Source of the DNA: Mobula birostris
Lineage: Eukaryota
NCBI RefSeq assembly: GCF_030028105.1
Contig: NC_092370.1
Span: 126,382,221 to 126,446,220 of the forward strand
Direction of reading: 5' to 3'
DNA: 64,000 nt
Shown here: one piece after another, positions 2,524-49,940 of the stretch
How the letters are laid out: every line of letters starts with the position of its first letter
How positions within the stretch are numbered: position 1 is the first letter of the stretch
Position numbers and translations under genes: made by a program
Notes under the pieces: generated by a model
What the model was told of the DNA's origin: nothing
The model's input: only the letters and a program-made list of their open reading frames with translations
Database searches by the model: none

Positions 2524-2583
2524 CACACATAAAAGTAGCTGGTGAACGCAGCAGGCCAGAAGGCATCTATAGGAAGAGGTACA

Positions 2584-2618
2584 GATGACGTTTCGGGCCG
2601 AGACCCTTCGTCAGGACT
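2584..2618 (-). ncRNA. Minimal hammerhead motif with degraded stem I
   Basis: AGUC-CUGACGA-AGGGUCUCGGCCC-GAAA-CGUC-AUCU. Confidence 0.6.
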
Positions 2619-2829
2619 AATTGAAAGAAGAGATAGTAAGGGATTTGAAAGTGGGGGGGAGGTCCGAAATGATAGGAGAAGACAGGAGGGGGAGGGATGG
2701 AGCCAAGAGCTGGACAGTAGATTGGCAAAAGGGATATGAGAGGATCATGGGATGGGAGGCCGAGGGAGAAAGAAAGGGGGAGGGGGTAAGTCCAGAGGAT
2801 GGGCAAGGAGTATAGTGAGAGGGACAGCG

Positions 2830-2968
2830 NNNNNNNNNNNNNNNNNNNNNNNNNNNNNNNNNNNNNNNNNNNNNNNNNNNNNNNNNNNNNNNNNNNNNNN
2901 NNNNNNNNNNNNNNNNNNNNNNNNNNNNNNNNNNNNNNNNNNNNNNNNNNNNNNNNNNNNNNNNNNNN
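2830..2968. other. Assembly gap (139 N)
   Basis: Run of N inside the PLE 3' UTR. Confidence 0.99.
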
Positions 2969-5480
2969 GTATGAAGAGGAGGTGGGACATTAACGGAAGT
3001 TAGAGAAGTCAATATTCATGCCATCAGGTTGGAGGCTACCCAGCCGGAATATAAGGAGTTGTTCCTCCAACCTGAGTGTGGCTTCATCTTGACAGTGGGG
3101 GAGGCCGTGGATAGACATATCAGAATGGGAGTGGGACGTGGAATTAAAACGTGTGGCTACTGGGAGATCCTGCTTTCTCTGGTGGACAGAGCCTAGGTGT
3201 TCAGCGAAATGGTCTCCCAGCCTGTGTCTGGTCTCGCCAATATATAGAAGGCCACATCGGGAGCACCGGACGCAGTATATCACCCCAGTCGACTCACAGG
3301 TGAAGTGTCACCTCACCTGGAAGGACTGTCTGGGGCCCTGAATGGTGGTGAGGGAGGAAGTGTAAGGGCATGTGTAGCACTTGTTCCGCTTACAAGGATA
3401 AATGCCAGGAGGAAGATCGGTGGGAAGGGATGGGGGGTACGAATGGACAAGGGAGTCACGTAGGGAGCGATCCCTGCAGAAAGCAGAGGGGGGGAGGAAA
3501 AGATGTGCTTAGTGGTGGGATCCCATTGGAGATGGTGGAAGTTACGGAGAATTATATGTTGGACCTGGAGGCTGATGGGATGGTAGGTGAGGACAAGGGG
3601 AACACTGTTCCTAGTGGGGTGGCGAGAGGATGGGGTGAGAGCAGATGTGCGTGAAATGGGAGAGATGCATTTGAGTGCAGAGTTGATGGTGAAGGAAGGG
3701 AAGCCCCTTTCTTTAAAAAGGGAGGACATCTCCTTCGTCCTGGAATGAAAAGCTTCATCTTGAGAGCAGATGCGGCGGAGACAGAGGAATTGCGAGAAGG
3801 GGATGGCATTTTTGCAAGAGACAGGGTGAGAAGAGGAATAGTCCGGGTAGCTGTGAGAGTCTGTCGGCTTATAGTAGACATCAGTAGATAAGCTGTCTCC
3901 AGAGAGAGAAACAGAAAGATCAAGAAAGGGGAAGGAGGTGTCAGAAATGGACCAGGTAAACTTGAGGGCAGGATGAAATTTGGAGGCAAAGTTAATGAAG
4001 TCAACAAGCTCAGCATGCATGCAGGAAGCAGCGCCAATGCAGTCGTCGATGTAGTGAAGGAAAAATGGGGGACCGATACTAGTATAGGCTTGGAACATGG
4101 ATTGTTCCACAAAGCCAACAAAAAGGCAGGCATAGCTAGGACCCATATGGGTGCCCATGGCTACACCTTTAGTTTGGAGGAAGTGGAAGGAACCAAAGGA
4201 GAAATTATTAAGAGTAAGGATTATTTCCGCTAGCTGGAGCAGAGTGGTGGTAGAGGGGAACTGGTTAGGTCTGGAATCCAAAAAGAAGCAGAGAGCTTTG
4301 AGATCTTCCTGGTGGGGGATGGAAGTACATAAGGACTGGACATCCATGGTGAAAATAAAGCGGTGGGGGCCAGGGAACTTAAAATCATCGAAAAGTTTAA
4401 GAGCGTGAGAAGTGTCACGAACATAGGTAGGAAGGGATTGAACAAGGGGGGATAAAACAGTGTTGAGGTATGCAGAAATGAGTCAGGTGGGGCAGGAGCA
4501 AGCTGAGACAATAGGTCTGCCAGGACAGGCAGGTTTATGGATCTTGGGTAGGAGGTAGAAACGTGAAGTGCGGGGTGTGGGAACTATAAGGTTGGTAGCA
4601 GTGGATGGGAGATCCCCTGAGCGGATAAAGTTGGTGATGGTGTGGGAGACAATGGCCTGGTGCTCCTTAGTGGGGTCATGATCGGGGAGTAAATAAGAGG
4701 AGGTATCCGTGAGTTGTCACTGTGCCTCGGCAAGGTAGAGGTCAGTACGCCAGACTATAACAGCGCCCCCCTTATCGGCGGGTTTAATAGTAAGGTTAGG
4801 ATTAGTGCAGAGGGAGTGGAGAGCGGAGCGTTCGGAAGGAGTGAGGTTGGAATGGGAACAAGGTGTGGTGAAGTCGAGACGGTTGATGTCCCGTCGGCAG
4901 TTAGCAATAAAGAGATCCAGAGCAGGCAGAAGACCAGAGCGGGGTGCCCATGAAGAGGAGGATGGTTGAAGACGGGAGAAGGGGTCATCAGTGGGGGTGG
5001 GAGAGTCCTTGCTGAAGAAGTAGGCTCGAAGACGGAGCCGACAGAAGAAGAGTTCAACATCATGGCGAACGCGGTACTCGCTGAGGTGTAGGCGAAGGGG
5101 AACAAAGGTGAGGCCCTTACTGAAGACAGAGCCTCTGACAGTTGAAGGTCGGAGGGGATGGTAGAGGCCTGGCACAGATGAGAAGTGGGATCAGAGGGCG
5201 GAGGGAGAGGGAGGCTGGGGTTGTCAGTGGAGAGGGGAGGGTTGGGGTGAGAGGAAGAAGGAGCCTTCGAGGGCCCAGGAGTAGCTGATGGAATGTGAGG
5301 GAGATGGGGTTGCAGAGTGGTGGTGGGGGAAGAGGAGACGGGAGTCACAATAGCAGCATGTGAAGACCCAGCCTGGCCTTCAAGTCTGGAATCTTGAGAG
5401 CGAGGATCAGAGGGGGGAGGGGGGAGGCTGGGGGCGTCAGTGGAGAGGGGAGAGTTGGGGTGAAAGGAAGATGGAGCGTC

Positions 5481-7048
5481 TCCCAGCTATGCCTGCCTTT
5501 TGGTTGGCGTTGTGGAACAATCCCTGTTCCAAGCCTATACTGGTATCTGTCCCCCACTTTTCCTTCGCTACATTGGAGACTGCATTGGCACTGCTTCCTG
5601 CACGCATGCTGAGCTCGTCGACTTTATTAACATTGCCTCCAACTTTCACCCTGCCCTCAAGTTTACCTGGTCCATTTCCGACACCTCCATCCCCTTTCTT
5701 GATCTTTCTGTTTCTACCTCTGGAGACAGCTTATCTACTGACGTCTACTATAAGCCCACGGTCTCTCACAGCTACCTGGACTATTCCTCTTCTCACTCTC
5801 TCTCTTGCAAAAATGCCATCCCCTCCTCGCAATTCCTCCGTCTCCGTCGCATCTGCTCTCAGGATGAGGCTTTTCATTCCAGGACGAAAGAGATGTCCTT
5901 ATTTAATGAAAGGGGCTTCCCTTCCTTCACCATCAACTCTGCTCTCAAACGCTTCTCTCCTATTTCATGCACATCTGCTCTCAACCCATCCTCCCGCCAC
6001 CCCACTAGGAATAAGGTTCCCCTTGTCTTCACCAACCATCCCACCAGCCTCCGGGTCCCACATATAATTCCCCGTAACTTCCGCCACCTCCAACGGGATC
6101 CCAACACTAAGCACATCTTTCCCTCCACCCCTCTCTCTGCTTTCCGCAGGGATCGCTCCCTACGCGACTCCCTTGTCCATTCGTCCCCCCATCCATTCCC
6201 ACCAATCTCCCTCCCAGCACTTATCCTTGTAAGCAGAACAAGTGCTACACATGCCCTTATGCTTCCTCCTTCACCACCATACAGGGCCCCAGACAGTCCT
6301 TCCAGGTGAGGCAACACTTCACCTGTGAGTCGGCTGGGGTGATATACTGCATCCGGTGCTCCCGATGCAGCCTTCTATATATTGGCGAGACCCGACACAG
6401 GCTGGGAGACCGTTTCGATGAACATCTACGCTCTGTCTGCCAGAGAAAGCAGGATCTTCCAGTGGCCACACATTTTAATTCCATGTCCCATTCCCATTCT
6501 GATATGTCTATCCACGGCCTCCTCTACTGTAAAGATGAAGCCACACCTTATATTCCGTCTGGGTAGCCTCCAACCTGATGGCATGAACATTGTCTTCTCT
6601 AACACCCCACCTCCCCCTCGTAACCCACCCATCATTTATTTATTTATTTATTTATTTATTTTCTCTCCTTTTTCTCCCTCTGTCCCTCTCACTATACCCC
6701 TTGCCCATCCTCTGGGCTTCCCCCCTCCCCCTTTCTTTCTCCCTAGGCCTCCTGTCCCATGATCCTTTCCCTTCTCCAGCCTCGTATCCCATTTGCCAAT
6801 CAACTTTCCGGCTCGGCTCCATCTCTCCCCCTCCTGTCTTCTCCTATCATTTCAGATCTCCCCTTCCCCCTCCCACTTTCAAATCTCTTACTATCTCTTC
6901 TTTCAGTTAGTCCTGACGAAGGGTCTCAGCCTGAAACGTCGACTGTACCTCCTCCTATAGATGCTGCCTGGCCTGCTGTGTTCACCAGCAACTTTTATGT
7001 GTGTGGCTTGAAATTCCAGCCTCTGCAGATTTCCTCGTGTTTGCGTTT
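5481..7048 (+). mobile_element. Penelope-like retroelement (Neptune group), inverted short arm with complete 3' end
   Basis: Inverted homolog of about 2524-4140; RT C-terminal half, TYPCKQNKCYTCP linker, GIY-YIG; 14 bp TSD TTAAAATCAATATA at 2510-2523 and 7049-7062 encloses both arms. Confidence 0.95.
6909..6944 (+). ncRNA. Minimal type I hammerhead ribozyme motif
   Basis: Stem I AGUC (6909-12)/GACU (6941-44), CUGACGA 6913-19, stem II AGG/CCU, GAAA 6933-36, predicted cleavage after GUC at 6940. Confidence 0.85.
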
Positions 7049-7925
7049 TTAAAATCAATATATTGGCATTACAGTTGAATAAAAGTAACTGTAAATGTGT
7101 GAAGGAGAACTGGCCTAAATTGATTGGAAGAAGACAATAGCAGGGCTGATGGTGGAACAGCAATGGCTGGAGTTTCTGAGAGTTATTTTGAGAGTTCATC
7201 CCAAAGAAGGATTCTGAAGGGAGGATTAGGCAACAACCATGGCTAAAAAGAGAAGACAAAGAAAGCATAAAAGGGAGAGCATATGGCATAGTGAAACTTA
7301 GTAGTGAGCTGGAGGATTGGGGGATACATGGTCATGCACTTTGGTAGAAGGAATAAAGGCATAGACTGCTTTCTAAATGTGGACCAAATTTAGAAATTGC
7401 AAGTCCAAAGGGATTTAGGAGTCCTAGTGCAAGATTCTCCAAAAGTGAATTTGCAGGTTAAGTTGGAAGCAGGGAAGGCACATGCAATGTTAGCATTCAT
7501 TTCGAGAGGTCTGGAATATAAAAGTAAAGATGTAATGCTGAAATTTTGTAAGGCTTTGGTCCGACCACATTTGGAGTATTGTGAGTGGTTTTGGACTTCA
7601 TACCTAAGGAAGGATTTGCTGGCATTGGAAAGGATCTAGAAGAGGAGTACAAGAATGATCTTGGGAATGTAAGGGTTAAAATATGAAGAGTGTTTGATAC
7701 TTCTGGGCCTGTTCTGTCTGGAGTTTAGAAGAATGGCTGCAGGGGAGAGGGATCTCATTGAATCCTACTGTATATTGAAAGCCTGGGTAGAGTGAACATG
7801 GAGAGGATGTTTTAATATTGGGACTGACTAAAATCAGAGCGCATGGCTTCAGAATATATTAAAAAGTGAAATCCCCAGAGCAGATTTGATAGCCTAATTG
7901 TGATCCTATGCCTTATGGTCTTATG
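7049..7925 (+). mobile_element. CR1 LINE, continuation to 3' end (internally deleted)
   Basis: QRDLGVLV...AMLAFISRGLEYKSKDVML...LVRPHLEYC; CR1-like tail CCTTATGGTCTTATGG. Confidence 0.85.
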
Positions 7926-7934
7926 GCCATGGTC

Positions 7935-9305
7935 ACGGAATTCTTTACTTACTGGTTAACTACTTCTCCCCCCAACATTCCATCTCTTTCCTCTCTCCTC
8001 TTGATCGACCAAGTTTCTCCCACACTAACCTTAGTCCCCCACAACTCTTTTTCCTTCCCCTTCCCACCCACTTCATCTGTCCATCACTCACAAATTCCTT
8101 CCACTTGGTTACCACCCCAACTGTCTTGAGCTGCCTACCACACCTCCCTTATTTGGTTCCGTGGACCATCCTATTTGCCTTTACGTCATCTGCGGCTCTC
8201 CGTCCCCTCAACCTATCTCCTCCTGTTCTCTGTCACTATTTCCACTCTCCCCTCCTATCACCTGAACATTCCTAACTCTGTGCCCAGATTCTGCTCTAAC
8301 TCCAAGTGCAAGTTTGCAGGTGATTCCACCATAATGGACCATATCTCAAATAACAAGGGTTGGAGTAAAGGAAGGAGACTGAGAATTTAGTAACACAGTA
8401 TCATGACAACTACCTTTCCTTCAATGTCAGCAAAATAAGAGCTAGTCATTGGCTTCAGGAAAGAGGGCAGAGCACATGCTCCTGTTTACATCAATGGTGA
8501 TGAGGTTGAGAGGGTTGAAGTTCAACTTTTAGCAGTGAATATCCACATAGACATCATGAACAAGAAAGTTCACGCATGCCTCTACTTCCTCTGGAGGCTA
8601 CAGAAGTTTGGCATGACCATCAACCCTTACCAATGTTTATCGATGTACCATATGGAGCATCCTATTTGGATGCATCATGGGTTGATATGGCACGTGACCA
8701 CAGCAAACTGCAGAGGGCTATGGCCACAGATCTGCACATCACAGGAACCAGCCTCCCTTCCATGCTCTCCACTTCCCTGTACATCAGCAAAGCAGCCAGA
8801 ATAATACAGCTTCTATCCCAAAGTCATAAGACTATTAAATCATTCTCTACCACAATAAGCTTGATTCTTGGCTTCACAACCTAGCTCACAATGGTTACGC
8901 AGCTTATTGTTTACCTGCATTGCAATTTCTCAATAGCTGTTACTCTTTATTCTGCATTGTTATTGTTTTATCCTGTTCTGCCTCAATGCATTTGTAATGA
9001 GTTGATTTGTATGAACAGCATACAAGATAAGATTTTCACTGTATCATGTGACTTCAATAAAGCAATTCCAATACCATTTCCAATTTCAATTCCGTTCCCA
9101 GCTGGATCCATCTATCGCCTGCCAACTGTTGCTTCACTTCTTCCCCTTACCTCTTTATACTGTTTAGCTCGCCTCTGTTCTTCAGTCAAGATAAAGAGTC
9201 TTCATTGACGGCTCATTTCTCTTCATGGATGCTGCCTGACCTGCTGAGTTCATCCATCATCTTGTTTGTAGCTCCAGATTCCATAATCTACTAAATCTTG
9301 ATTTT
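7935..9305 (+). mobile_element. Old PLE 3' UTR/tail, interrupted by a Rex1-type LINE
   Basis: Pyrimidine-rich UTR 7935-8260 resumes at about 9095 and ends GATGCTGCCTGACCTGCTGAGTT...GCTCCAGATTCC. Confidence 0.55.
8265..9090 (+). mobile_element. Rex1/Babar-type LINE 3' fragment
   Basis: KFAGDSTI, FNVSK..ELVI, CLYFLWRLQKFGM motifs; AATAAA plus (ATTCCA)n-like tail. Confidence 0.75.
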
Positions 9306-10144
9306 CCTGCTTATTTAGTACTTTATCATCACGCTGAATAATAATTCCCTCTGCTACTCATAATTATGATGTTTGCCAACTTGAAAATATATTACATAGT
9401 AATTTAAAATGTATTACCTAGTTCAGACTGACAGCACCACCCGACAACACCTGCCAGCAAAGATACTTGCAAAAAGTGAATAGAAAAGCATTCCAAGCCT
9501 CTAAATGCTATCACCTATTTCTTGATTTGGGATGATATCCTGTTTGTTAGTAAAAAAATCTGGTTCCAGATTAATGATACTGTGTGATTTGCTACACAAA
9601 AGCACTGTTGCTGTTTATAGGGAAGAGGACTCTCTGTCTACTTGTCAAAATCAAATCAAGTCGGCTGAGAAAAAAAAATGATTATGAAATCAAATTCAGG
9701 CAAAGTATTCTGAAAAGTTCAAAGAATCACTTCACTATCAGTTTCTCAAAGACCCAATTCACTAAATGAAAACAGTAAGTTGTAAAGAACAATCAGCCCA
9801 ACTTCTAGCAGTTACTAAACAGCAGGAAGTGTAAGATTGACTTATTAACTCATTGAGATCATTTCTAGCCACTTGCAGGGTTCTACTGCTCATCAACTTT
9901 GATAAAAATGGACTTTCTGAAGTTTTAGGGAGATCTGGGAAGACCCAGAGGGAAATACAGCTGCAACTCAGATGAAACAAGAGTTATTACCGTAACAAAG
10001 AACAATGTCAGAATTCTTAAGAACAGAGGGAATGTTAGAAGATGTATTGCTTGTATAATACTATAAATGCTAGCAAGATGAGAGCAGTAAATGCCAACCT
10101 TGTCTGGAAAAAGTGAAAAGAAATACTATAATTTTCGAGTCTAG

Positions 10145-18941: not shown

Positions 18942-18977
18942 AGTCAATGTTTCAGGCCAGGACCCTTCGTCAGGACT
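18942..18977 (-). ncRNA. Hammerhead motif, CpG-decayed at the cleavage site
   Basis: AGUC-CUGACGA-AGGGUCCUGGCCU-GAAA-CAUU-GACU. Confidence 0.55.
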
Positions 18978-23399: not shown

Positions 23400-25805
23400 G
23401 AGCAACACACGCAAAATGCTGGAGGTACTCAGCAGGTCAGGCAGCATCTATGGAAATTAATGAACAGTCAACATTTTGAGCTGACAGCCTTCATCAGGAT
23501 TGACAAGGAAGTGGCGGGGGGAGGCGCCAGAGTAAAGAGGTGGGGGGAGGGGAAGGGGGAATAGATAGAAGGTGACAGGTGAAGCCAGGTGGATGGGAAA
23601 GAGAAAGGATTGGAAAGGAAGGAATCTGATAGGAGAGGAGAGTAGTCCATAGGAGAAGGGGAGGGAGGAAGGGACCCAAGGGGAGGTGATAGTCAGTTGA
23701 GAAGAGGTAGGAGGCCAGAGTGGGGAATAGAAGAAAAGAGGATGGGGAGGGAATTTTTTTTAGAGGAAGGAGAAATTGATATTCATGCCATTAAGTTGAA
23801 GACTACCTAGACGAAACATAAGGTGTCACTCCTCCACACTGAGGGTGGCTATGAGAGGAGGTCATGGACCAACATGTCAAAATGGGAAAGGGAATAGGAA
23901 ATAAAATGTCTGGCCACCAGGAAGTTCCACATTAGGGAGATGGGGCGGAGGTGCTCGATGAAGCACTCCCCTGATTTACGATGGGTCTCACCAATGTAGA
24001 GGCCGCTTCAGGAGCACCGAACACAATAGCCAGCCCCAGCAGATCTGCAGGGGAAGTGTTGCCCCACCTGGAAGGACTGTTTGCGGGCCCTGAATGAAGG
24101 TGAGGGAGGAGGTGAATGGGCAGGTGTAGCGCTTTGGCTGCTTGCAGGGATAAGTGCTAGGAGGGAGATCAGTGGAGAGTGATGAATTGACAACGGAATC
24201 AAGGCGGAAGCAATCCCTACAAAAAGCAGAGAGAGGTAGGAGAGGGAAAGATACGTTTGGAGGTAGGATCCCTTTGGAAATGGGAGCAGTTGCAGAGAAT
24301 GATGTGTTGGATGCGGAGGCTCATGGGGTGGTAGCTGAGGACAAGTGGAACTCTACCAGTGTTAGGGGGGCAGGAAGGTGGGGTGAGTGAAGATGTTTGG
24401 GAAGTAGAGAAGATGTGAATGAGGGCAACATCAATAGTGGAGAAAGATAAACCCTGTTTTCTGAAGAAGGACACCTCTAATGTCCTGGAAAGGAGAGCTG
24501 CATGTGGGATTAGATGTGGTGGAGACCAAGGAACTGAGAAACGGGAATACACAAATTGTTGGAGAAACTCAGCAGGTCAGGCAGCATTAATGGATAGGAA
24601 TAAACAGCTGAAGTGTTGGTCTGAAACCCTTCATCAGGACTGGAAAAAAGATGAGAAGTCTGAGAAAGAAGGTGGAGGAGGGGAGAAAGAAATACAAGGT
24701 GGTAGGTGATAGGTGTCTGGGAGGAGAGAAGGGGTGAGGTAAAGAACTGCGAAGCTGTAGGCTGGAAGAGGGGAATTTGATAGGAGAGGGTAGAAGACCA
24801 TGGAAGAAGGCGAAGTAGGAGGAAAACTGGGAGGGGAAGGGGGTGGGATGAGCAGGTAAGGAGAAAGGTGAAAGAGGGAAACAAGAATAGGGAATAGCAA
24901 AGAGGGGGCAATTACCGGAAGCTCAAGAATTCGATGTTTGTGCCTATCTGGCTGGAGTCTACTAAGATGGAATATAAGATGTTGCTCCTCCAACCTGAGT
25001 GTGGCTTCATCGCAGCAGTGGAGGAGGTCATGGGCTGACATGTCAGGATGGGAATGGGAAGTAGAGTTGAAATGGGTGCCTACTGGAAGATCCTACTTTT
25101 TCTGGTGGATGGGGCTTAGTTGCTCAGCAAAGCAGCCTCACAATCTATGTCAGTTCTCACTGGTATAGAGGTGGCCACCAGGAGCAACACCTTATATTCC
25201 ATCGGGGTAGCCTCCAACCTGATGGCAAGAACATCGATTTCTTGAACCTCTGGTTAATAACCCCCCCATCTTCACTGTTCCTCATTCTTGTTTTCCTCTC
25301 TCACACTTTCCTTACCTGCCCATCACCACTCACTAGTACTCCTCCTGCTTCCCTTTCTTCCATGGTCTTCTACCCTCTCCTATCAGATTTCCCCTTCTCC
25401 ATCCCTTTATGTCTTTCAGCAATCAACTTCCATTCTTTACTTCCCCATCCCCCTCTCTCAGTTTTACCTATCACCTTATATCTCTTCCTCCCTTACTGGT
25501 CACTGCCTTCTTACTCTGACTTCTCATCTTTTTTTTTCCAATCCTGATGAAGCCATTCAGAAGCATTGATTTCCACAGATGCTGCCTGGCCGGCTGAGTT
25601 CCTCCAGTATTGTGTATGTCTTGCCTTGGATTTCCAGCACCTGCAGATTTTCTGGTGCTTGTGAGAAAAGGCAATAGCATTTTTACAGTAAACAGGGTGG
25701 GAAGAGGTATAGTCAAGATAACCATGGGAATCAGTAGGATTATAAAAGCTGTTGGTCGAAAGTTTATCTCCAGAGTTGGAGGTAGAGAGATTGAGAAAGG
25801 GGAGG
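23400..25805 (-). mobile_element. PLE (older subfamily), 5'-truncated, interrupted by 24550-25661
   Basis: Tail at 23400 with decayed hammerhead (about 23466-23500); GIY-YIG remnant; RVPLVLSYHP...HIILCN..HFQRDP; resumes at 25662. Confidence 0.8.
24550..25661. mobile_element. Inverted two-arm PLE insertion nested in a PLE
   Basis: Minus arm about 24550-25180 and plus arm about 25181-25661 with complete end; TSD TGAGAAACGGGAATA (24535-24549) / TGAGAAAAGGCAATA (25662-25676). Confidence 0.8.
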
Positions 25806-28709: not shown

Positions 28710-29920
28710 CGAGGAGGTTACCAAGAAAGTAGATGAAGGAAAGGCTGTGGATGTTGTCTACATGGAATTTAGTAAGGCCTTTGACAAGGTCCCACATGGG
28801 AAGTTAGTTCAGAAGTTTCAGACACTAGGTATCCATGGAAAGGTTTAAACTGGATTCGAAATTGGCTGTGTGGGAGAAGACAGAGAGTGGTAGTGGATGT
28901 TTGCTTCTCAGACTGGAGGCCTGTGACTAGTGGTGTGCCTCAGGGATCTGTGCTGGGACCATTGTTGATTGTTGTCTTTCTCAATGATCTAGATGATAAT
29001 GTGGTAAAATGAATCAGCAAGTTTACTGATGGCACTAAGATTGGAGGTGTTGTGGACAGCGAGGAAGGCTTTCAAAAGGAGGGATCTGGACCAACTGGAA
29101 AAATGGGCCAGAAAATGGCAGATGGAATTTAATGCAGACAAGTGTGAGGGTGTTGCATTTTGGAAGGACAAATCAAGATAGGACATACGCAGTAAATGGG
29201 AGGGCACTGAGGAGTGTGGAGGAACAAAGGGATCTGGGAGTTCAGGTACATAATTCCCAGAAAGTGACATCACAGGTAGACAGGGTTGTAGAGAAGGCTT
29301 TTGGCATCCTGGCATTCATAAATCAAAGCATTGAGTATAGGAGTTTGGATGTTATGGTGAGGTTGTATAAGACATTGGTGAGGCCAAATTTGGAGTATTG
29401 TGTGCAGTTCTGGTCATCTAACTATAGGAAGGATATCAGTAAGATTGAAAGAGTCCAGAGAAGATTTACTAGGATGTTACCAGGTCTTCAGGAGTTGAGT
29501 TACAGGGAAAGATTGAACAGGTTAGGACTTTATTCCTTGGAGTGTAGAAGAATGAGGGGGGATTTGATAGAGGTTTACAAAATTATGAGGGGTATAGACA
29601 GAATAAATGCAAGTAGGCTCTTTCCACTTACACTAGGAGAGATAAATATGAGAGGACATGGCTTTAGGGTGAAAAGGGAAAGGTTAGGAATATTAGGGTG
29701 AACTTCTTCACTCAGAGAGTGTTGGGAGTGTGGAACGAGCTGCCATCTGATGTGGTAAATGTGTGTTCACTCTTAAGAATAAATTGGATAGATACATGGA
29801 TGCGAGAGGTCTGGAGGGTTATGGACTGGGTGCAGGTCAATGGGACTAGCGGAATAAAGTTTCGGCACAGACTAGAAGGGCTGAATGGCCTGTTTTCTGT
29901 GCTGTAGTGTTCTATGGTTC
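28710..29920 (+). mobile_element. CR1 LINE RT-to-3' end, well preserved
   Basis: [59 protein letters not shown]; TTCTATGGTTCT tail. Confidence 0.95.
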
Positions 29921-31099: not shown

Positions 31100-32120
31100 T
31101 AACAACACTCACAAAACACTGGAGAAACCCAGAAACATCATCAGGATGAAGGGTCTTGGCCCAAAATGTTGACTGTTCATTTTCCTTCATTGATACTGCC
31201 TGGGCAGCTGAGTTCCTCTAGGTTTCCAGCATTATGCATTCTCTTTTGTGTCTACATTTCTTTGGGATGTGGGAGGGAACCAGCGCACACTGGAGAGGGC
31301 AAGAGGAGATTCACCAAGATGTTACCTGAGAAAGAACTTTTTAGTTAGTGGGAGAGACTGAAGAGGCTTGGCCCATTTTCCCTTGAGCCTGCGTGGCCTA
31401 CAACCTGATGCAATGAATATTGAGTTTTCTGATTTTAGTTAATTTCCCCTTGTCTTTCCTTTTTCCCTGTCTCCCCCGTCTCCTTCTGATCCGCCCATTT
31501 TTGCTTCACTTCCCACTGTCCCCCCATCCCCTTTCACCGGTCTTTGTTCCCAATCTCCTCAATATTTCACTAACATCACTATGCTCACCCCCAATCCCAC
31601 CACCACCAACAATTTCCACCTGGTTCCAACAATTGTCCACCCTTTCCTTCTCCTCTACTGGCTCCCATTCTCATCTTCTTTACTTACTGGAATCCAGCAC
31701 TGGTGTTCCTGTTTATCGTCCTCCAGCATCGACCTCCAGTCTCCCCTCTCCTCCTTGCTCCATCTTTTGTCTAACAGTAACACATACAAAAAATACTGGA
31801 AGAATTTAGGTTGCATCTATGGAGGGGAATAAGTAATCAGCTTTTCAGGCCAGGACCCTTCATCAAAACTGGCTCTATCTGTTTCATTTTCCTCAATCTC
31901 TTTGTCTGCCTCCACCTATCATTCTCCTGTCACAGTCTTCCTACTCTACTCCCACTCACCTCCCCAGCCTGGCTCCACCTACTTGTCATCTACACTTCTT
32001 CTCAGTGAAGCAATCTCCTCAAAGTCTTCTCTTCCCATTCTCCTTCTCCTCTCTACGCAGACCATCCTGTATCTCCACTCTCAGTCCTAAAGCAGGATTT
32101 CAGCCTGAAACGTTGACAAT
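31100..32120. mobile_element. Cluster of old PLE tail fragments in both orientations plus a SINE remnant
   Basis: Decayed hammerhead motifs at about 31143-31175 (+), 31843-31872 (-) and 32083-32118 (+); CTACAACCTGATG...ATGAATATTGAG GIY-YIG end at about 31400. Confidence 0.6.
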
Positions 32121-32175: not shown

Positions 32176-32885
32176 CAATGTGGAGGATCAGAGGGATCTT
32201 GGGGTCCGAGTCCATAGGACGCCTAAAGCTGCTGTGCAGGTTGACTCTGTGGTTAAGAAAGCATACAGTGCATCAGCCTTCATCAATTGTGGGAATGAGT
32301 TTAGGAGCTGAGAGGTAATGTTAAAGCTATATAGGACTCTGGTCAGACCCCACTTGGAGTACTGTGCTCAGTTCTGGTATCTTCACTATAGGAAGGACGT
32401 GGAAACAATAGAAAGGGTGCAGAGGAGATTTACAAGGATCTTGCCTGGATTGAGGAGCATGCCTTATGAGAATAGGTTGAGTGAACTCAGTCTTCATTCC
32501 TCGGAGCGACAGAGGATGAGAGGTGACCTTTTAGAGGTGTACAAGATGATGAGAGGCATTGATCGTGTGGATAGTCAGAGGCTTTTTCCCAGGGCTGAAA
32601 TGGCTGGCATGAGAGGGCACAGTTTTAAAGCGCTTGGAATCAGGTACAGAGGAGATACTAGGGGTAAGTTTTTTACACAGAGAGTGGTGACTTTGTGGAA
32701 TAGGCTGCCGGCGATAGTGGTGGAGGTGGATATGATAGGGTCTTTTAAGAGACTCCTGGACAGTTATATGGAGCTCAGTAAAACAGAGGGCTATGGGACC
32801 CTAGGTAATTTCTCAGTTAAGGGCATGCTTGGCACAGCTTTGTGGGCCGAAGTGCCTGTATTGTGCTGTAGGTTCTCTATGTTTT
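32176..32885 (+). mobile_element. CR1 LINE 3' fragment
   Basis: MLKLYRTLVRPHLEYCAQFW...GDLLEVYKMMRGIDRVDSQRLFP...FFTQRVV. Confidence 0.93.
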
Positions 32886-34179
32886 TATTGAAAGGATATC
32901 AGAAACAAGAGAGGGTCTGTTGTTTCTGTCCCGATAATAGCTCTTGGCTCGAAATATCAATGTTAACACTTTTCCATAAATGCTGCCTGGCCTGCTTAGG
33001 TGCCTTCAGCATTTTGTGTGCGTCACTGAGGGGATATCAGAGGTACTTTGGAACAATACACCATCAGCCAGGACAATCTGTACCGTATTTCAGAGCTGAA
33101 GTCTCTACATCATCACTTAACCACATGGCACTCCATCTGTGAAATTCATTTCACTGACTCGCAGTGAAATCCAGTCTCAGGTAAGTCCCAATCTTCATTG
33201 GAGAAAGAAGTAAAAGGTCTCAGTCTCAAATCTCCGTTTGCTGAGTTCACACAGTATCTGCCAATACATCATATCTGAACTGCCATTTTAACCCAGGGTC
33301 TGATTACTGGTGAAATCTATAGGAGGAAACCTAGTGGAAGTGCAGCAGGAGCCTAGAGAGCTGAATGTCGTATTACATCCAATGGGTACTGCCAACTTTC
33401 CATCCCAAACCACCTCATGAAGTTACCTTGATCCAGGACAACACCTATTTACATTTGGAATCTTCTTCAGCGCAGTGTCCCTCCAAATCTTACCTCCTGA
33501 TAATACGTTTAATGACACCACTAGTTTATCTTCAACTCCTTTTTAAATCTTTTCTCTCTCACCTTATCATCTATCCCTATAAAACTATCAGTGACAGTCT
33601 TCAATCAATTGGCCTATTCATAATATTTAATATTTAAAGTCTTTTCATAATATTTAAACCTTACAACACAGAGCTTTTCTTATTTGCTATTGATCTTGTG
33701 GATGCTATTACTACATTGAAAATAACTCCCCATTGCATATCCTGATGCGTTTAGCTGTGGTGGTTGTGCTGCGCTAATATTATCAGTTACAGGATATATG
33801 AGCATCAATCTAGAATGTTTTTCCTCACCCCATGATGTAATGATGCTACTATGACCTCTGACCATGTGACTACTTTATATAACCAAATGCAGATACACCA
33901 CACTCCCCATGAAAGGAAGTTATTGCTGCTCCATCTCCGTTCATTATTGCTCCTACTTGCCTCGCTGACAGGGATTACAGCAACATCTGGAAAGAATTCA
34001 ATCCTAAACATGTAAATGCAAATGAATTAAAATCTGAGCTTTGTTGCTTGACATGTCTCCACAACCCAACACTCCTTTCATATTGCTCCCATCATGAATT
34101 CAGAATGACAGCCGAATTTTTGCCACAGTCTTGTAGGAAAAATTAATGAATTTTGGCAGTTTTATTTTTCCAGGAGAAT

Positions 34180-36837: not shown

Positions 36838-38430
36838 ACTGGACTTCATTAAAACAGTTGTAGATGAGGTTGTCCCACAAAATTACTCAGAGTCTTTCCC
36901 AACCAGAAGCCCTGCATGTACCATAAGATCTGCAATCTGCTGAAGGCCAGATCAGAGGCATTCAAGTCTTGTGATCAAGAAAGGTACAACAGGTCCAGGT
37001 ACAATCTCCAGAAAGCTATCTCATGGGTGAAGTGGCAATTCCAGACCAAACTTCAATCAACAAAGGATGCTTGACAGTTGTGGCAGGGCTTGAATGCTAC
37101 CTCCTCTTATACAGTTAAATCAAGTGACATAGGTGACAACAGGACTTTATTTCCAAATGAACTCAATGCCTTCCATGCTTGCTTTGGAGGAACATGGAGG
37201 AACCATCATGAACACCCACAGCCCCAGATAATCTTGTGATTTCAGTCTCTGAGGGTGACGTGCAAGCTGTCTTCAAGAGAATGATCCCATGAACAGTATC
37301 TGGCACAGATGGGGTACCTGGTCAAGTATGAAAGACCTGTGCTGATCAGCCGGCTGGTGTGTTCACTGAGAAGTTTAACCTTTTGCTTTGGCAATCTGAG
37401 GTACCCACCAGACTTCACTTATACCACTGCGCCTAAGAAGAACATGGTAAACTGCCTCAATGACTACTATGCATTTCTATTTACATCCACTGTGATAAAG
37501 TGTTTTGAGAGGCTGGTACTGAAACTATCAATTCCTCCCGAATGGACTTGGATTTGCTCCAATTTGACTACCGACACAACAGGTCCACAGCAGATGCCTT
37601 CTCATTGGCTCTTCACTAAACCCTGGAACATTTGGACAGCAAAGATGCATACATCAGGATGCTCTTCATTGACTACAGCTCAGCATTCAATAACATCATC
37701 CCCTCAAAACTAATCAATAAGCTTCAAGTCGTTGGTCTCAATACCTCTGTGAGCAACTAGATCCTCAGTTTCCTGCAGACTCCAGTCAGTTCGGATTGTC
37801 AACAACATCTCCTCCTCCACAATCTTGAGGTGCACTGCCAGGATCTGTGCTTAGCCCCACTTATGACTGTGTGGCTAAGCACAGCTCCAATTCCATATTC
37901 AAGTTTACTGACAACACCACCATTGTAGGCTGAATCAAAGGTGGTGCCAAATCAGCATATAGGAGGGAGATTGAAAATCCGACTCAGTGGTACTACAACA
38001 ACAACCTCTTACTCAATGTCAGCAACACCAATGAGTTGTTTTTTGACTTCAGGAGGACGAAACCAGTGGTCCATGAGCAAGCAACACACATAAAAGTTGC
38101 TGGTGAATGCAGCAGGCCAGGTAGCACCTCTTCCTAGAGATGCTGCCTGGCCTGCTGCGTTCACCAGCAACTTTTATGTGTGTTGTTTGAATTTCCAGCA
38201 TCTGCAGAATTCCTGTTTGCGTTTAAGGTCCATGAGCAAGTCCTCATTAGAGGGTCAGAATTGGAAAGAGTCAGCAATTTTAAAATCCCTGGTGTTATCA
38301 TTTCAGAGGACCTGTCCTGGTCCCAGCACTTAAGTGCAATTATGAAGAAAGCACAGGAGTGCCTCTACTTCCTTAAGAGCTTGTAAAGATTTGGCATTAC
38401 ATCTAAAACTTTGACAGACTTCTACAGATG
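36838..38430 (+). mobile_element. Rex1/Babar LINE, RT region, degenerate
   Basis: CLNDYY...[65 protein letters not shown]. Confidence 0.9.
38082..38226. mobile_element. 145 bp inverted PLE-tail insertion forming a 45 bp hairpin
   Basis: Arms 38082-38126 and 38141-38185; perfect 14 bp TSD GGTCCATGAGCAAG at 38068-38081 and 38227-38240. Confidence 0.92.
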
Positions 38431-39895: not shown

Positions 39896-40828
39896 CTGTC
39901 CCAATCAGTGGCTCGCCCCCTTAATCTTCCAAGTTTTTTCACTACCAACAAACCACAAGTTCAGCAGCACACATACATGATTCTCAGCAGATCAGGTAGC
40001 ATCTATGGAGGGGAATAAACAGTCACCATTTCGGGCTGAGACCCTTCATGAAGATAAGTTCAGGGGTGACATGGAATACTCCACCTCCCTGCACAAGGGC
40101 TCTCATTCAGAACAAAGTAGCCCACATGATTTGTACTCCACCTTAACCTTTCACTACGGGCACCAATGACACACTCTAACGGCAGAGTGTACCATCTACA
40201 AAACGTATTGCAGTTACCCACCCAGAACATCCTGGCTGCATAGCACAATAATGCAAAATATTGCAGGTATTGGAATTCCGCAATCTGTACAAAAAACCTG
40301 TGGAGAAACTGAAATCAGTAGAGTTAGTGAAGACAAAAATAAAAATAACATTTAAGGTGCTTCTTTACCTCCTGAAACATACTTTTGCTAATCTGTTCTG
40401 GTAAATTATTGATAAAGTTTTCCTGATAACTACAAAGCACCTTGGAATGCTTTGTAATTGAAAGAAGAATTGCTCACTCAAGCTGCAATTGTAGAATTAA
40501 GTATTTGGGATGTGATCCTAGGAACTTAATCCGGAAAATCAAATGATGCAAAGGAATTTCAATTAAAAGAGGAATGCATTTCTGTCACCTGTAATTTAAA
40601 GCAGCCTTGAACTCATTGTCTGCTGCTTTGCTATTTATAACATTTTCACGTCTGCTGCTTTAGCTAATACATCTGTACAGTCTAAGCCTCAAATGATTGT
40701 TCCTATCCAGATGCCATGGTCTGAGTACACCATATCCTCATTGTCTGAAGGTAATAAGGTAAATAATGTTGGTTTTGAGCCCTGACAATAAATCAAAGTC
40801 GAACTTATTGTCATATGCTCAAGTACGT

Positions 40829-42188: not shown

Positions 42189-42812
42189 ATAGAACATAGG
42201 ACATAGAATAGAACAGCACAGTACAGGCCCTTCGGCCCACATTGTTGTGCCGACCCTCAAACCCCGCCTCCCATATAACACCCCGCCTTAAATTCCTCCA
42301 TATACCTGTCTAGTAGTCTCTTAAATTTCACTGGTGTATCTGCCTCCACCACTGACTCAGGCAGTGTATTCCATGCACGAACCACTCAAAAAAAAACCTT
42401 CCTCTAATATCCCCCTTGAACTTCCCACCCATTACCTTAAAGCCATGTCCTTTTGTAGTGAGCAGTGGTGCCCTGGGGAAGAGGTGTTGGCTATCCATTC
42501 TATCTATTCCTCTTATTATCTTGTACACCTCTATCATGTCTCCTCTCATTCTCCTTCTCTCCAAAGAGTAAAGCCCTAGCTCCCTTAATCTCTGATCATA
42601 ATCCATACTCTCTAAACCAGGCAGCATCCTGGTAAATCTCCTCTGTACCTTTTCCAATGCTTCCACATCCTTCCTATAGTGATGCGACCAGAACTCGACA
42701 CAGTACTTCAAGTGTGGCCTAACCAGAGTTTTACAGAGCTGCATCATTACCTCACGACTCTTAAACTCTATCCCTCGACTTATGAAAGCTGACACCCCAT
42801 AAGCTTTCTTAT
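42189..42812 (-). mobile_element. CR1 3' fragment nested in the Gypsy integrase
   Basis: KKAYGVSAFISRGIEFKSREVM...LVRPHLKYCVEFWS; (ATAGA)-type tail at the left. Confidence 0.9.
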
Positions 42813-44181
42813 AGGGTATCAACATGGGACCACGGGTGTTCTGGGAAACAGTAGAGACTGTTGGAGCCCAAAGGGCTGCTGGTTGGAGGAACTGCACTGG
42901 GCACATTGAGGGCAGGCAGCGGCGAACTGATGTACATTTGTGATCATGGTGGGCCACTGGAACTGGGATCGCAGAAAATCCAAGAGTCCGTCGTAGACTT
43001 GATGGTTGGAGAGGGGTGAGGAGGGACAAAGGGCCTGGTCCTTTGGCAAGAGACCATTACACCTGCTGCCCACACACTGCCTAACCTCTTACAACATATG
43101 TGATTCCGTTAACACCTTGATGCCTGTGTAACACATGAAGCATAAAGCCAGCATCAATGATTAACTGCACATTCACACTTGCTGCTATTTGGTCTGTCCC
43201 TGACACTCAGGGTACCTAATGATACTGTCATTAGTACAGAAAATGTAACATGGAAGAAGGAAAGAAAGAGGTGTGGGTGATAGAGGGAGAAGCAGTAAGT
43301 GGCTGAGGGAGGGTTGTTAAGGAGAATCAATGCAAAGAGAGTGACACTGGGATAAAAGATCAGCCATCAACTGGCAGGGTGTTTGGGCATGCGTGAGGGG
43401 TAGCAGGAGGGGGAGAGGAGAGGGCGGGGAGCAGGAGCAGAAAGAGAGAGAGAGCAGGAAGGAGAGAGGGAGAGTGGGAAGGAAGGAGATGGGGAGGAGG
43501 TGGGAGAATGAGGAGTAAGAGTGGGAGGTGGAGAGGGATGGGAAGAGAAGATGGAATGATGGGCCTCCATTTTGACTGGGTCAAACTGTCATGACAGGAC
43601 GTCCAGCTCAGTGTTCGTAAGGCTGCTTCGGTAAGAGTTGAATTGCTTGAAGAAGAGGACCCAGCATCCCTGATATAGGTTGAGTTGGTGGGCCCAATTT
43701 ATGGATAGGAGGTTCTGTTGGTCCCATCAACCGTTGGCTTCATTCTCCCAAGGCTCATTTAATGGAAAGTAGCTGCCTGACTTCTACTCCATAATGCTGC
43801 TGTGCAGAGTTGAACTTGTACAAGAAGAAGGCACTAGGGTGTGTCCTTCCCGTCTGGTCCTCACTGGAAAAGGATGACTCCAGTGCCCACATCAGATGCA
43901 TCCACTCCTACTGCAAAAGGTCTGCATGTGTTTGGACGATGGAGAATGGGAGCAGTGGTGAAGCATCTCTTGAGCACTTTGAAAATAAGGTCTGCAGCAG
44001 CAGACCAGGTCATCTGTGAGGTAGGTGATTTGGTGAGAGAAGCAGTGATTTGGCTGCAGTTCCTGATGAAATGAAATGGTGGTAAGGTTGGAGAAGCCCA
44101 AGAGTTGTTGTAGCTGTTCGAGGGAGCGCAGTCGGGGCCATTCAATGATGATGCACACTTTCTCCGGGTCCATGGTTATCG

Positions 44182-44665
44182 TAAGACCTAGGAGCAGAAT
44201 TAGGCCATTGGGTTACCGCATCTGCTCTGCCATTTCATCATGGCTGATCCCATTTTCCTCTCAGCCCCAATCTCCTGCCTTCTCCCCGTATCCCTTCAAG
44301 CCCTGACCAATCAAGAATCTATCAACCTCTGCTTTAAATATACATACAGACTTGGCCTCCACAGCTGCCTGTGGCAAAGAATTCCACAGGTTCACCACCC
44401 TCTGGCTAAAGAAATTCTTTCTCATCTCCATTCTAAAAGGGCACGTTTCTATGCTGAGGTTGTGTCCTCTGGACTCTCCCACCACAGGAAACATCCTCTC
44501 CACATCCACCCTATCAAGGCCTTTCACCATTTGATAGGTTTCAATGAAGTCACACCTTATTCTTCTGAATTCTAGCGAATACAGGCCCAGAGCCATCAAA
44601 CATGCGTCATGTGATAAGCCATTCAATCCTGGAATCATTTTCGTGAACCTCCTTTGAACCCTCTC
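44182..44665 (-). mobile_element. CR1 3' fragment nested in the Gypsy RT
   Basis: MIPGLNGLS...LGLYSLEFRR...FFSQRVVNLWNSLPQAAVEA. Confidence 0.9.
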
Positions 44666-46595
44666 ATGTCTCAGAGGATGTCATTGGTGAAGGCTAGAAA
44701 AATGGCTAGACTGCTGTTGGAACGTCTGAAAGGCATCACTAGGTATTCATAATGACCAGTGGGTGTCTTGAATGCTCTGTTCCACTCATCTGGCTGGTGC
44801 AGATTAGTTTGTACCAGCTCCGTATATTCAGTTTGGTGAAAATCTGGGCTCTGCAGAGCATCTCGAATGCATTAACCATCAAGGGCAGAGGGCAACAGTT
44901 CTTAACTGTGATCTTGTTGAGTCCACTGTAGTTGATGCAGTTACAGAGACCCCATAATTGTTTCAGACAAAGAAGAATGCCACACCGGATGGGGGCAGAG
45001 ATGGTCAAATGAAACTGTGCTACAGCGCTTTGGCGATGTAGTCTTTCATGGGTCTCAGGAGGGGAGAGAGAGAACAGACGACCTTGAGGGGGAGGTAGTG
45101 CCCGGGAGGAGGTTGATTGCAGAGTCGTATGGTCTGTGGTCGAAGGGTGCTGGCCTCCCTTTTAATGATGGTGATGACGCTGTCATGGTATTCCTGTGGG
45201 AGTTGGGTGAGGAGGAGAGTTTTCTCCATCTCCACTGAATTACAGGGTGAGCCAACTGAGATTGCAGGCAGGTAGTCCAGCAGGTGGGGCCCCCACAGCA
45301 GTGAACTGGATGACCAGGCAAAGTGAGGGTTGTGAGTGGAGGGCCAGAGTTAACTCAAGATGAGAGGAGTGTTTGGGTAAGTTGATGAGGAGGAATTGAA
45401 TGGACTTGTGGTGCTTTCCGATGATCATGTGCACAGGCCCTGTGTGCGCTCTGACTGTCCCTAACTGCAACGATGTCTGTCCAGGGCTGTGATCCAGAAG
45501 GAGCGAGAGATAGGCTCATTAGGGAAGCCGAGCTGTATGGACAGAGTCCGGTCCGGAAAGTTGTCTATTGTGGCAGAATCTGCCAGAGCCTCCTGTGTGC
45601 ATAGAGCCATTGTGGTGTGGAGGAAGACAGAGAAAACGAGTCGAGCTATGGTGCTAGGACAAAGGGGCAGGGGGAGCTTACCAGATGGAAGGCCTCTCGT
45701 CTCTGCCTGGTGGTGCTGTTTTGCTGGATGCAGTGGGCATTTGATGCACAAGTGATTGGTGTCTCCACAGTAGGAGCACAAATTGTTTCTTCAACTCTGC
45801 TCATGCCTTTTTTTTTGTGGGGGTGGGGTTGGTTTAAAAGAACTCTATCTCTACCTGCATAGGCTCTGGAGGCAATGATGATGAGGGTCCTGCACCCCGA
45901 AGTGGTTCTGGGAATGGAAATGGGGTCCTGGCAGGTAATCTGGGGGGTTGTTCCACAAGATGCTTGTCAATTCAGACAGACAGAGTGATGATGCTTTCGA
46001 GGTCAGTGGTAGACAGCTGGTTCCTCAAGCACTCTGAGGGGCCGTGGTGGTAATGGGACTGCAGCACTTCCACTTTCCAGCTCCACTCTGCTGGGGGGGT
46101 CCTGAATTCCAGCTGTGAGCATGAGCTCTGACACAGGTGAGGCATCCATTCCACTGCCCCCGCTTACTGGATGGTCGAAAACCCGCCACATCTCAGCGGT
46201 GAATTCCTGACGCTCACTACAAATGGTGGTCTTACTGTCCCAGTTAGCGGTGGCCCAGGACAGAGCTCGCCCAGTCAGGAGAGAGATGTCGAAGGCGATT
46301 TTGGCTGGGTTGTTAAAATACAGAGACGGCTGGAACTCGAAGTGGAAGATGCAGTTGGACAGAAACCCGTGGCATCGGATTGGGGATCGATCAAAGCATT
46401 AGGGCACCAGAGTGTGGGGCTCTGAAGGAGAAGATGGACTGGTGCGGCATTGCTGAATCAAGACGGGGAGCTGGGGGAGAGTGGCGAGCAGATGGTCAAT
46501 GGTTTCTTACTACTTGAGGATAATGCACTCCTGTCAATGGATGAATTCCTTTCGGCGAGCCTACTCTATTGGGTCAATTTCTGGTTCACGCATCC

Positions 46596-49329: not shown

Positions 49330-49940
49330 TTAGATTCATGGAGATGTACAGCGCGGCAGCAGACCACTCGGCCCATTAAGTCAATGCTGGGCATCAACCA
49401 TTAATACTAATTCTACGTTAATCCCATTATCTTTTTTTACTTTTCCCTACATTCTCGTCAACTACCTTCAAGACTCTACCACTCACCTACACATAGTGGC
49501 CAATAAACTGACCGACATGCACACGTGGACAGAAGTCGAAGCACCCAGAGGAAACGCGTGCAGTCAAAGGGCAATGAGTAAATTCCACACAGATACCACT
49601 GGAGTCAGGATTGGGTGCCACGGTAGTGTGGTGATTAGCATAATGCTTTGCGATGCCCATGGCCCAGGTTCAATTCCTGGCCGCTGCATGTTAAGAGTTC
49701 TCCCCCTGACCGCGTGGGTTTCCTCCCACGGTCCAAAGGTGTACTGGTTGGCAGGTCAACTGGTCATTGTAAATTGTCCTGTGATTAGACTAGGATTAAA
49801 CCTTGGGGATTGCTGGGTTTGAAGGGCTGGGATTGCACATTCCATGTTGCAGCTCAACAAATAAATAAATAAATATTGAACCTGGCTTTCTGGTGCTGTG
49901 AGACAGTTTCTCTGCTAGCTGTACCACTGTGCCAGCCACA
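49330..49940. mobile_element. V-domain SINE (+, 49613-49874) nested in another V-domain SINE (-)
   Basis: Inner: A-box GGTAGTGTGGTG, B-box GGTTCAATTCC, (AAAT)n tail. Outer: reverse B-box GGATTG|AACCTGG split by the insertion. Confidence 0.8.

Follow-up and report, generated by a model that had tools for sequence, protein, structure and literature searches.

The locus analyzed here raises the question of whether a hammerhead ribozyme carried by a Penelope-like element (PLE) has any part in the formation of the inverted, double-ended insertions in which copies of the element are found. We have analyzed a stretch of 64,000 nucleotides of the Mobula birostris genome (the window), in which the motif in question occupies positions 6909 to 6944 of the forward strand and, read directly, has the sequence AGTC CTGACGA A GGGTCTCAGCCT GAAA CG TC GACT. 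By sequence and by site scoring it is a minimal type I hammerhead. Helix I is formed by AGUC and GACU (6909–6912 and 6941–6944) and encloses the core CUGACGA (6913–6919), an unpaired extra A between 9 and 10.1 (6920), a stem II of four pairs (6921–6932; G.U, G-C, G-C and U.G, with the loop CUCA), GAAA (6933–6936) and C17 (6940), after which the cut is predicted (6940/6941). Both catalytic boxes, CUGANGA and GAAA-UH, occur in the type I order, helix III and loop 3 are missing, and the palindromic 15.2–16.2 is the CG inside the palindrome ACGU (6936–6939). Positions relative to the motif are given below with C17 (6940) as 0, its first base (6909) being −31.

A strict descriptor matched once in the window and never in any of 200 order-1 shuffles, and a 34-nt pattern of the motif gave 40,296 exact matches genome-wide (4.0 Gb) against none for the reversed control. 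A search of Rfam at E ≤ 1 left 6909–6944 undetected, a result that is uninformative for motifs so reduced. The motif is a real and ordinary member of the min-HHR family described from Penelope-like elements (Cervera and De la Pena, 2014; PMC4209133). The first-pass annotation had recognized here a CUGANGA-stem II-GAAA-CG-UC core with an AGUC/GACU stem I, about 100 nt upstream of the PLE 3' end, and both points were borne out, the arm ending at 7048, 104 nt beyond the motif. That helix III is reduced to the palindrome ACGU, unable to close within one molecule, can be read from the sequence and matches PMC4209133 in the parts used here; the further statement that PLEs carry minimal type I hammerheads thought to act as dimers was already in print there. 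The "ultra-minimal" dimer-type hammerhead is therefore already published and not new.

In the sections of PMC4209133 that we cite, min-HHRs are described as lacking helix III and loop 3, with a palindromic 15.2–16.2 and an extra base between 9 and 10.1; they occur in Neptune and other PLEs of fishes, the monomer being inactive and the dimer weakly active in vitro. Like the window motif they are type I, have a short helix I and a palindromic 15.2–16.2 and are located in pLTRs, and they are likewise found as thousands of single truncated copies, some on opposite strands 100–700 bp apart. The differences lie in stem II (4 pairs here, 7–8 in Schistosoma), in the 10.1–11.1 pair (G.U in the young majority here, G-C in theirs) and in copy number, at least 40,296 here against reported numbers of 4,000–9,000 in coelacanth and Xenopus. 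The hosts named in those sections include no cartilaginous fish, and the supplementary alignments of the paper may already include the family of the window. Small PLE-associated hammerhead variants (Lunse et al., RNA Biol 14:1499, as reported via PMC6765202) resemble the window motif in their short palindromic stem III and were found to cleave as dimers, and a 2026 preprint (10.64898/2026.07.22.740005), in the part used here, ties retrozymes to PLEs and gives one of nine Xenopus dimers as cleaved.

The closing pair 10.1–11.1 is G.U in the 6909–6944 copy and in 21 of 29 young copies, and G-C in the older-copy majority, in the window copies at 968 and 2583 and in 62–78% of the depth in four other public sequencing runs; G10.1-C11.1 is termed highly conserved, not invariant, in the cited part of PMC4209133. 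The U that replaces C at 11.1 (window 6932) characterizes the most successful young lineage at a level far above the CpG decay of other sites, so that the master copy itself had the weaker G.U closing pair.

All of the nine further hammerhead sites listed by the first-pass annotation are present in the window, and we have assigned their strands. The copy at 968–1003 (−) belongs to another subfamily (CUGAUGA, G-C closing pair); its core is complete and helix I keeps three of four pairs, so "intact" had been slightly generous. The copy of the left arm at 2583–2618 (−) had been given as partly decayed, which is right for the broken 3' strand of helix I, its core being nonetheless complete. The remaining seven are decayed, with 0–3 core changes each, and the ACGT palindrome is gone in six of them. 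It was lost through CpG decay at 18942–18977 (−) and is retained at 32083–32118 (+), beside two core changes; site scoring placed the others at 23466–23501 (−), 24606–24641 (−), 31139–31174 (+), 31835–31870 (−) and 40021–40056 (−). In another sampled locus (L100, about 9580–9625, +) we found a minimal-hammerhead-like sequence with an entirely different helix I and stem II, probably from a second PLE family in this genome.

The hammerhead at 6909–6944 is located in the right arm (5481–7048, +) of a head-to-head PLE insertion, together with the 3' part of the reverse transcriptase (RT), a linker, GIY-YIG, the 3' region and a pLTR with a long tail. The left arm (2524–5477, −) is longer, has a short tail that ends at the equivalent of about 7004 and holds, besides its hammerhead copy, an RT frame at 3313–4482. 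Both arms are 89% identical across 1147 bp, and a 14-bp target-site duplication (TSD), read from the flanks, encloses them (2510–2523 and 7049–7062, +). Family copies end either near 7004–7011 (short) or near 7043–7053 (long), and by this comparison 6945–7048 (+) is the remainder of the pLTR plus the tail, with the long end in the right arm. A second, tiny head-to-head insertion of the family (38078–38224) has arms starting at +17 and +7, one short and one long tail and a 14-bp TSD; neither of its arms extends to the hammerhead.

In the element the RT is followed by a C-terminal GIY-YIG endonuclease, both recognized in decayed window frames with scores under the Pfam curated cut-offs (RVT_1, E 1.1e-3; GIY-YIG, PF01541, E 1.9e-4, just under, in the degraded C-terminal frame 6111–6566, +). 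The endonuclease is preceded in two window copies by a C-X4-C-XX-C linker, that of the last-mentioned frame included, and this CX2-5CxxC zinc-finger linker feature points to Neptune/Nematis. Judged from these sequence features, the host element is a very abundant Penelope-like retrotransposon of Neptune/Nematis type. In 3 of the 12 loci cut upstream of the ORF (L286, L290 and L295) the hammerhead module continues directly into the ORF 5' region, where an apparent start codon follows the cut site at a distance of about 140 nt. Since the module is found before the ORF as well as after it, the "tail" is the pLTR, which also heads the transcription unit; the earlier placement of the hammerhead in the PLE tails holds for its position after the ORF here and falls short in taking it for a feature of the 3' tail only. 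A non-LTR retrozyme, with tandem non-coding units and a complete hammerhead in each, was considered and rejected because the copies are single or head-to-head truncated PLE ends; same-strand neighbouring copies were few and irregular in the sampled loci. A tandem repeat of about 205 nt and variable copy number was seen in the N-terminal region of the PLE ORF, in the window (5130–5477, −) and at L267, L279, L282, L283 and L285.

The structure of the insertions was examined in unselected DNA, 130 stretches which together with the window amount to 1.36 Mb, and in loci taken around matches of the pattern. The pair survey covered 235 sequences (the window in, L001 out) and gave 331 distinct arms, from which 57 head-to-head pairs were recognized; those from L002–L010, L141–L155 and L216–L235 had been picked via the hammerhead or the best match, which biases the set to hammerhead-containing arms. 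For the 5' starts we used 239 distinct non-edge arms from loci not selected via the hammerhead, 104 of which passed the filters for young arms (identity ≥ 88%, 3' end ≥ +55, start ≤ +30). More than half of these young arms (57 of 104) sit in head-to-head pairs, and their tails fall into two classes, 48 short and 56 long with none intermediate. The two classes are combined in the pairs: in 54 of the 57 (p 2e-13) a long 3' end (+93 to +112) stands opposite a short one (+41 to +75), and the three exceptions had no clear TSD. Clean TSDs of 13–15 bp flank many of the pairs.

Paired arms are also matched to each other. Their 5' starts correlate (rho 0.70), and in 51 of 57 pairs both arms are stubs (≥ −35) or both are long (Fisher p 6e-10). 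In the 40 young mixed pairs, 85 of 101 comparisons at three subfamily sites showed the two arms in agreement (59% when shuffled), and rare variants were common to both arms in 27 of 344 cases, against about 1% when shuffled, a concordance that could also reflect two transcripts of one source locus or gene conversion between the inverted arms. In 24 of 54 pairs each arm holds sequence missing from the other, so that one arm is not a simple fold-back copy of the other there.

The 5' ends of the arms tell where copying stops. We found 22 of the 104 young arms starting at −34 to −27, a per-base rate about six times that of the neighbouring positions (p 1e-8). Run-off at the cut was sought in the same 104 arms, and the 7 starts found at −7 to +7 correspond to the background rate. 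Genome-wide, patterns that demand five non-consensus bases ahead of a given start gave 877 starts at −30, 22 at −7, 19 at +1 and 67 at +8 (16 of the latter look, by eye, like 1-nt indels). After correction for the chance of passing the filter, with assumed base frequencies and CpG content unequalised, the numbers become roughly 4200, 190, 290 and 425. Run-off at +1 was not found in this genome-wide search, whose filter drops microhomology joins, such as those at helix I in L260 and L263, so that a hidden cut-site class is possible.

Copies therefore run off at the first base of the motif and not at the cut, from which we infer a 5' end of the RNA at about −31, ahead of the ORF. The sequence at about −31 (TTAGTC/TCAGTT) is, we assume, initiator-like. 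Alternatively, the pile-up at −31 could be a release point of a cDNA hairpin. An excess of cap-derived G before −31 was looked for and not seen (25 G, 25 A and 50 C among the first 100 matches, by eye). We have also considered a splice acceptor ahead of the motif (a pyrimidine tract plus CAG, 6904–6906) and rejected it, because arms starting at −34 to −27 share no upstream exon. The starts as a whole suggest, at the level of sequence, that uncut RNA is the usual template of copying. Among the first 100 matches for copies starting at −30, 21 are preceded by GAAGG, either by a 13-nt stutter at the GTC microhomology or by a preferred inverted join at −40, and this class points to further kinds of stuttering by the enzyme at the same end.

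We consider it probable that one uncut RNA is primed twice, the protein using two internal sites, one for each nicked DNA strand, to give a two-armed insertion; the hammerhead of that RNA is predicted to be mostly an inactive rod that cuts rarely. The RNA would start at about −31, ahead of the ORF, with the hammerhead module heading the unit, and the protein of the element would prime one uncut RNA module internally from each of the nicked strands. Priming in the 5' module would run off at about −31 and leave stubs of 100–140 bp, priming in the 3' module would give the long arms, and the two cDNAs would then be joined near their stopping points. The hammerhead would be kept by selection in master copies, likely for a low-level, protein-assisted processing of tandem transcripts, and would not be responsible for double-ended insertion. 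If one RNA module has two internal priming sites, used from the two nicked strands, all of the long/short asymmetry is expected, whereas a symmetric homodimer through ACGU predicts none of it.

The long/short tail rule fits what has been described, in the parts of the paper used here, for PAc, a Poseidon element of Anolis carolinensis (Frangieh et al., 2024; PMC11167929), whose protein nicks and extends both DNA strands, and whose reverse transcription starts at two internal sites that define the tail. PAc and the window element have the same pLTR-ORF-pLTR organization with the hammerhead heading the ORF region, and the main template of PAc is, like in the scheme that we prefer, the uncut RNA. 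PAc differs in its clade, Penelope/Poseidon, and in an ORF that begins within the hammerhead; here the linker points to Neptune/Nematis, and about 140 nt separate the cut from the apparent start codon. The PAc hammerhead cleaves only with protein, and catalytically dead hammerheads insert normally in vitro; inverted insertions are not treated in the cited portion. Complex tandem/inverted insertions with a one-sided tail of 30–40 bp are known from other EN+ PLEs (PMC8557442, by Craig et al., 2021, and PMC3846280, by Arkhipova et al., 2013) and show, as here, an inverted 5'-truncated copy beside a direct one, a tail that is often confined to one end, and TSDs. In the parts that we cite, Naiads without canonical hammerheads make inverted insertions with the tail often at one end only (PMC8557442), and an inverted pLTR is described with self-priming as the proposed origin (PMC3846280). 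Those parts give the pattern without counts, and here it is accompanied by the 54 of 57 pairs, the correlated stops and the pile-up at the first base of the hammerhead. The function of the PLE hammerhead is called unclear in PMC8557442, and in vitro it was dispensable (PMC11167929), again in the parts consulted.

The motif may be under selection. Young (n=29) and older (n=111) majorities differ at 2 of the 36 motif positions (N7 and 11.1, both tolerated) and at 14 of 70 positions in the flanks, a contrast that is not significant alone (Fisher p 0.08). The CpGs in ACGU, in the loop and at the cut site persist in both majorities, and in contigs of four other public runs the block shared with the window commonly spans 6909 to about 6946. 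Helices I and II are almost invariant between subfamily majorities, leaving nothing to covary. Once a copy is inserted, ACGU is lost much as other CpGs are (intact in 17 of 29, against 19 of 29 for loop II), and just 8 of 29 young copies have both core and helix I intact, which is what dead copies should show. By nearest-neighbour folding, the minimum free energy structure of the monomer is a rod with the core GACG paired to CGUC (−10.0 kcal/mol), and the active dimer of two strands reaches −9.5 against −20 for two rods, energies that omit the non-canonical and tertiary contacts of the core and any help from protein. An inactive rod is the prevailing fold predicted for the monomer, and cutting should be rare.

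A trace of such cutting may be preserved in head-to-tail joins. A genome-wide search for such joins within the motif, in which the upstream piece was allowed to end anywhere from −9 to about +4, gave 44 matches, which may not all be independent. By eye, 15 end exactly at C17, 9 at −1 or +1, 3 are ambiguous and 17 lie elsewhere, which departs from a uniform spread over the 14 positions (p 2e-7). Ten of the 15 C17 joins (by eye) are blunt joins of C17 to −31 without microhomology, in the young family, and at L240 one piece spanning −30 to 0 lies between the inverted arm and a −31 start. The C17 joins hint that the RNA is cut from time to time and that the cut piece then stays next to an uncut RNA. 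It is possible, if still doubtful, that the blunt joins are germline fossils of hammerhead cleavage, formed when the RT ran off the 5' end of uncut RNA and jumped to the 32-nt cut fragment of a partner RNA still paired with it; such a jump would place two RNAs in one particle. If true, they would be in vivo evidence that the minimal hammerheads of PLEs cut, as dimers inside the transposition particle, without causing double-ended insertion.

Joins at the cut site amount to tens among tens of thousands of copies and so cannot explain the 57 of 104 double-ended young arms. The joint of 6940 to 6909 was absent from the contigs of six sequencing runs, which counts neither way as contigs drop rare short duplications, and a scan for head-to-tail pieces in 208 arms gave two matches, neither at the cut, being insensitive enough to miss the known case of L240. 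None of the tests applied here would reveal seamless circles formed when a cut RNA is ligated again. Our literature search found no paper combining a Penelope hammerhead with a template jump and, in the parts of the papers available, no passage that connects inverted insertions with dimers of the hammerhead. As a motif the ribozyme brings no novelty; what makes the family valuable is its very large natural record of integration products, and the rare joins at the scissile bond provide a handle on cleavage in vivo.

A protein dimer might instead hold two RNAs of one source locus, with its halves priming at different sites and the hammerhead as a bystander or a weak extra tether. The PAc protein is a predicted dimer that nicks both strands (PMC11167929, in the part used here), the variant concordance of the arms is high and incomplete (85 of 101), and the cut-site joins imply that a second RNA is sometimes present. 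We nevertheless regard this arrangement as unlikely, since independent RNAs need not share the primed module, yet 51 of 57 pairs agree in it, and the stopping points of the arms correlate.

Still less credible, and in our opinion very improbable, is the proposal of the first-pass annotation that two transcripts pair through ACGU (in fact through ACGU and both helices I), the dimer both cutting and bringing two templates to produce double-ended insertions. Helix III can indeed form only between two copies, 24 of the 44 head-to-tail joins end at −1 to +1 (the 15 at C17 and the 10 blunt ones among them), the L240 piece counts on its side, and the frequency of young arms in head-to-head pairs is as high as given above. 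Against this stand the fixed long/short asymmetry and the matched module origin of the arms, and no run-off is seen at +1. None of the 57 pairs has both arm starts at −4 to +2, in the ACGU and cut zone, six having one such start, and this result, with the long and short tails of 54 pairs, speaks against the supposed link of the ribozyme to double-ended insertion. Nor is it supported that two RNA 3' ends reach one target through the pairing of ACGU: in the cited part of PMC11167929, PLE reverse transcription starts internally instead of at the 3' ends of the RNA, and mutation of the hammerhead leaves insertion in vitro normal; Naiads without canonical hammerheads also invert (PMC8557442, in part). 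Besides, the ACGU duplex is weak (−1.7), the overlapping palindrome GUCGAC giving a stronger and inactive pairing (−7.5), and the tens of cut-site joins are set against at least 40,000 copies.

Least likely of all is that a single cDNA or antisense template folds back at local palindromes and primes itself to make the inverted arm, as proposed for Adineta PLEs (self-priming, in the cited part of PMC3846280). In favour of this, near-symmetric joins are common (median start difference 25 nt against 90 when shuffled) and two loci (L260 and L263) join at helix I itself. Against it, clean 13–15 bp TSDs flank many pairs, and in the 24 of 54 pairs with arm-private sequence, the insertion of the window included, the short-tailed arm extends more than 10 nt further 5' while the other arm is longer-tailed, which excludes fold-back as the sole route and leaves it possible for nested pairs.

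The window contains other putative mobile sequences besides the PLE insertions. Near-perfect 15-bp terminal inverted repeats (8–22 and 689–703) enclose about 700 bp at 8–703 in what looks like a non-autonomous DNA transposon, which we take to be PIF/Harbinger-like. A tRNA-like match below the Rfam gathering score at 49617–49688 (+) is probably the head of a tRNA-derived SINE. Decayed frames at 44739–45161 and 46003–46398 (−) presumably derive from the gag/pol of an LTR retroelement, which they resemble, and we take the segments at 29039–29701, 32312–33142, 42328–43056 and 44261–44680 to be C-terminal fragments of CR1/L2-type LINE reverse transcriptases.
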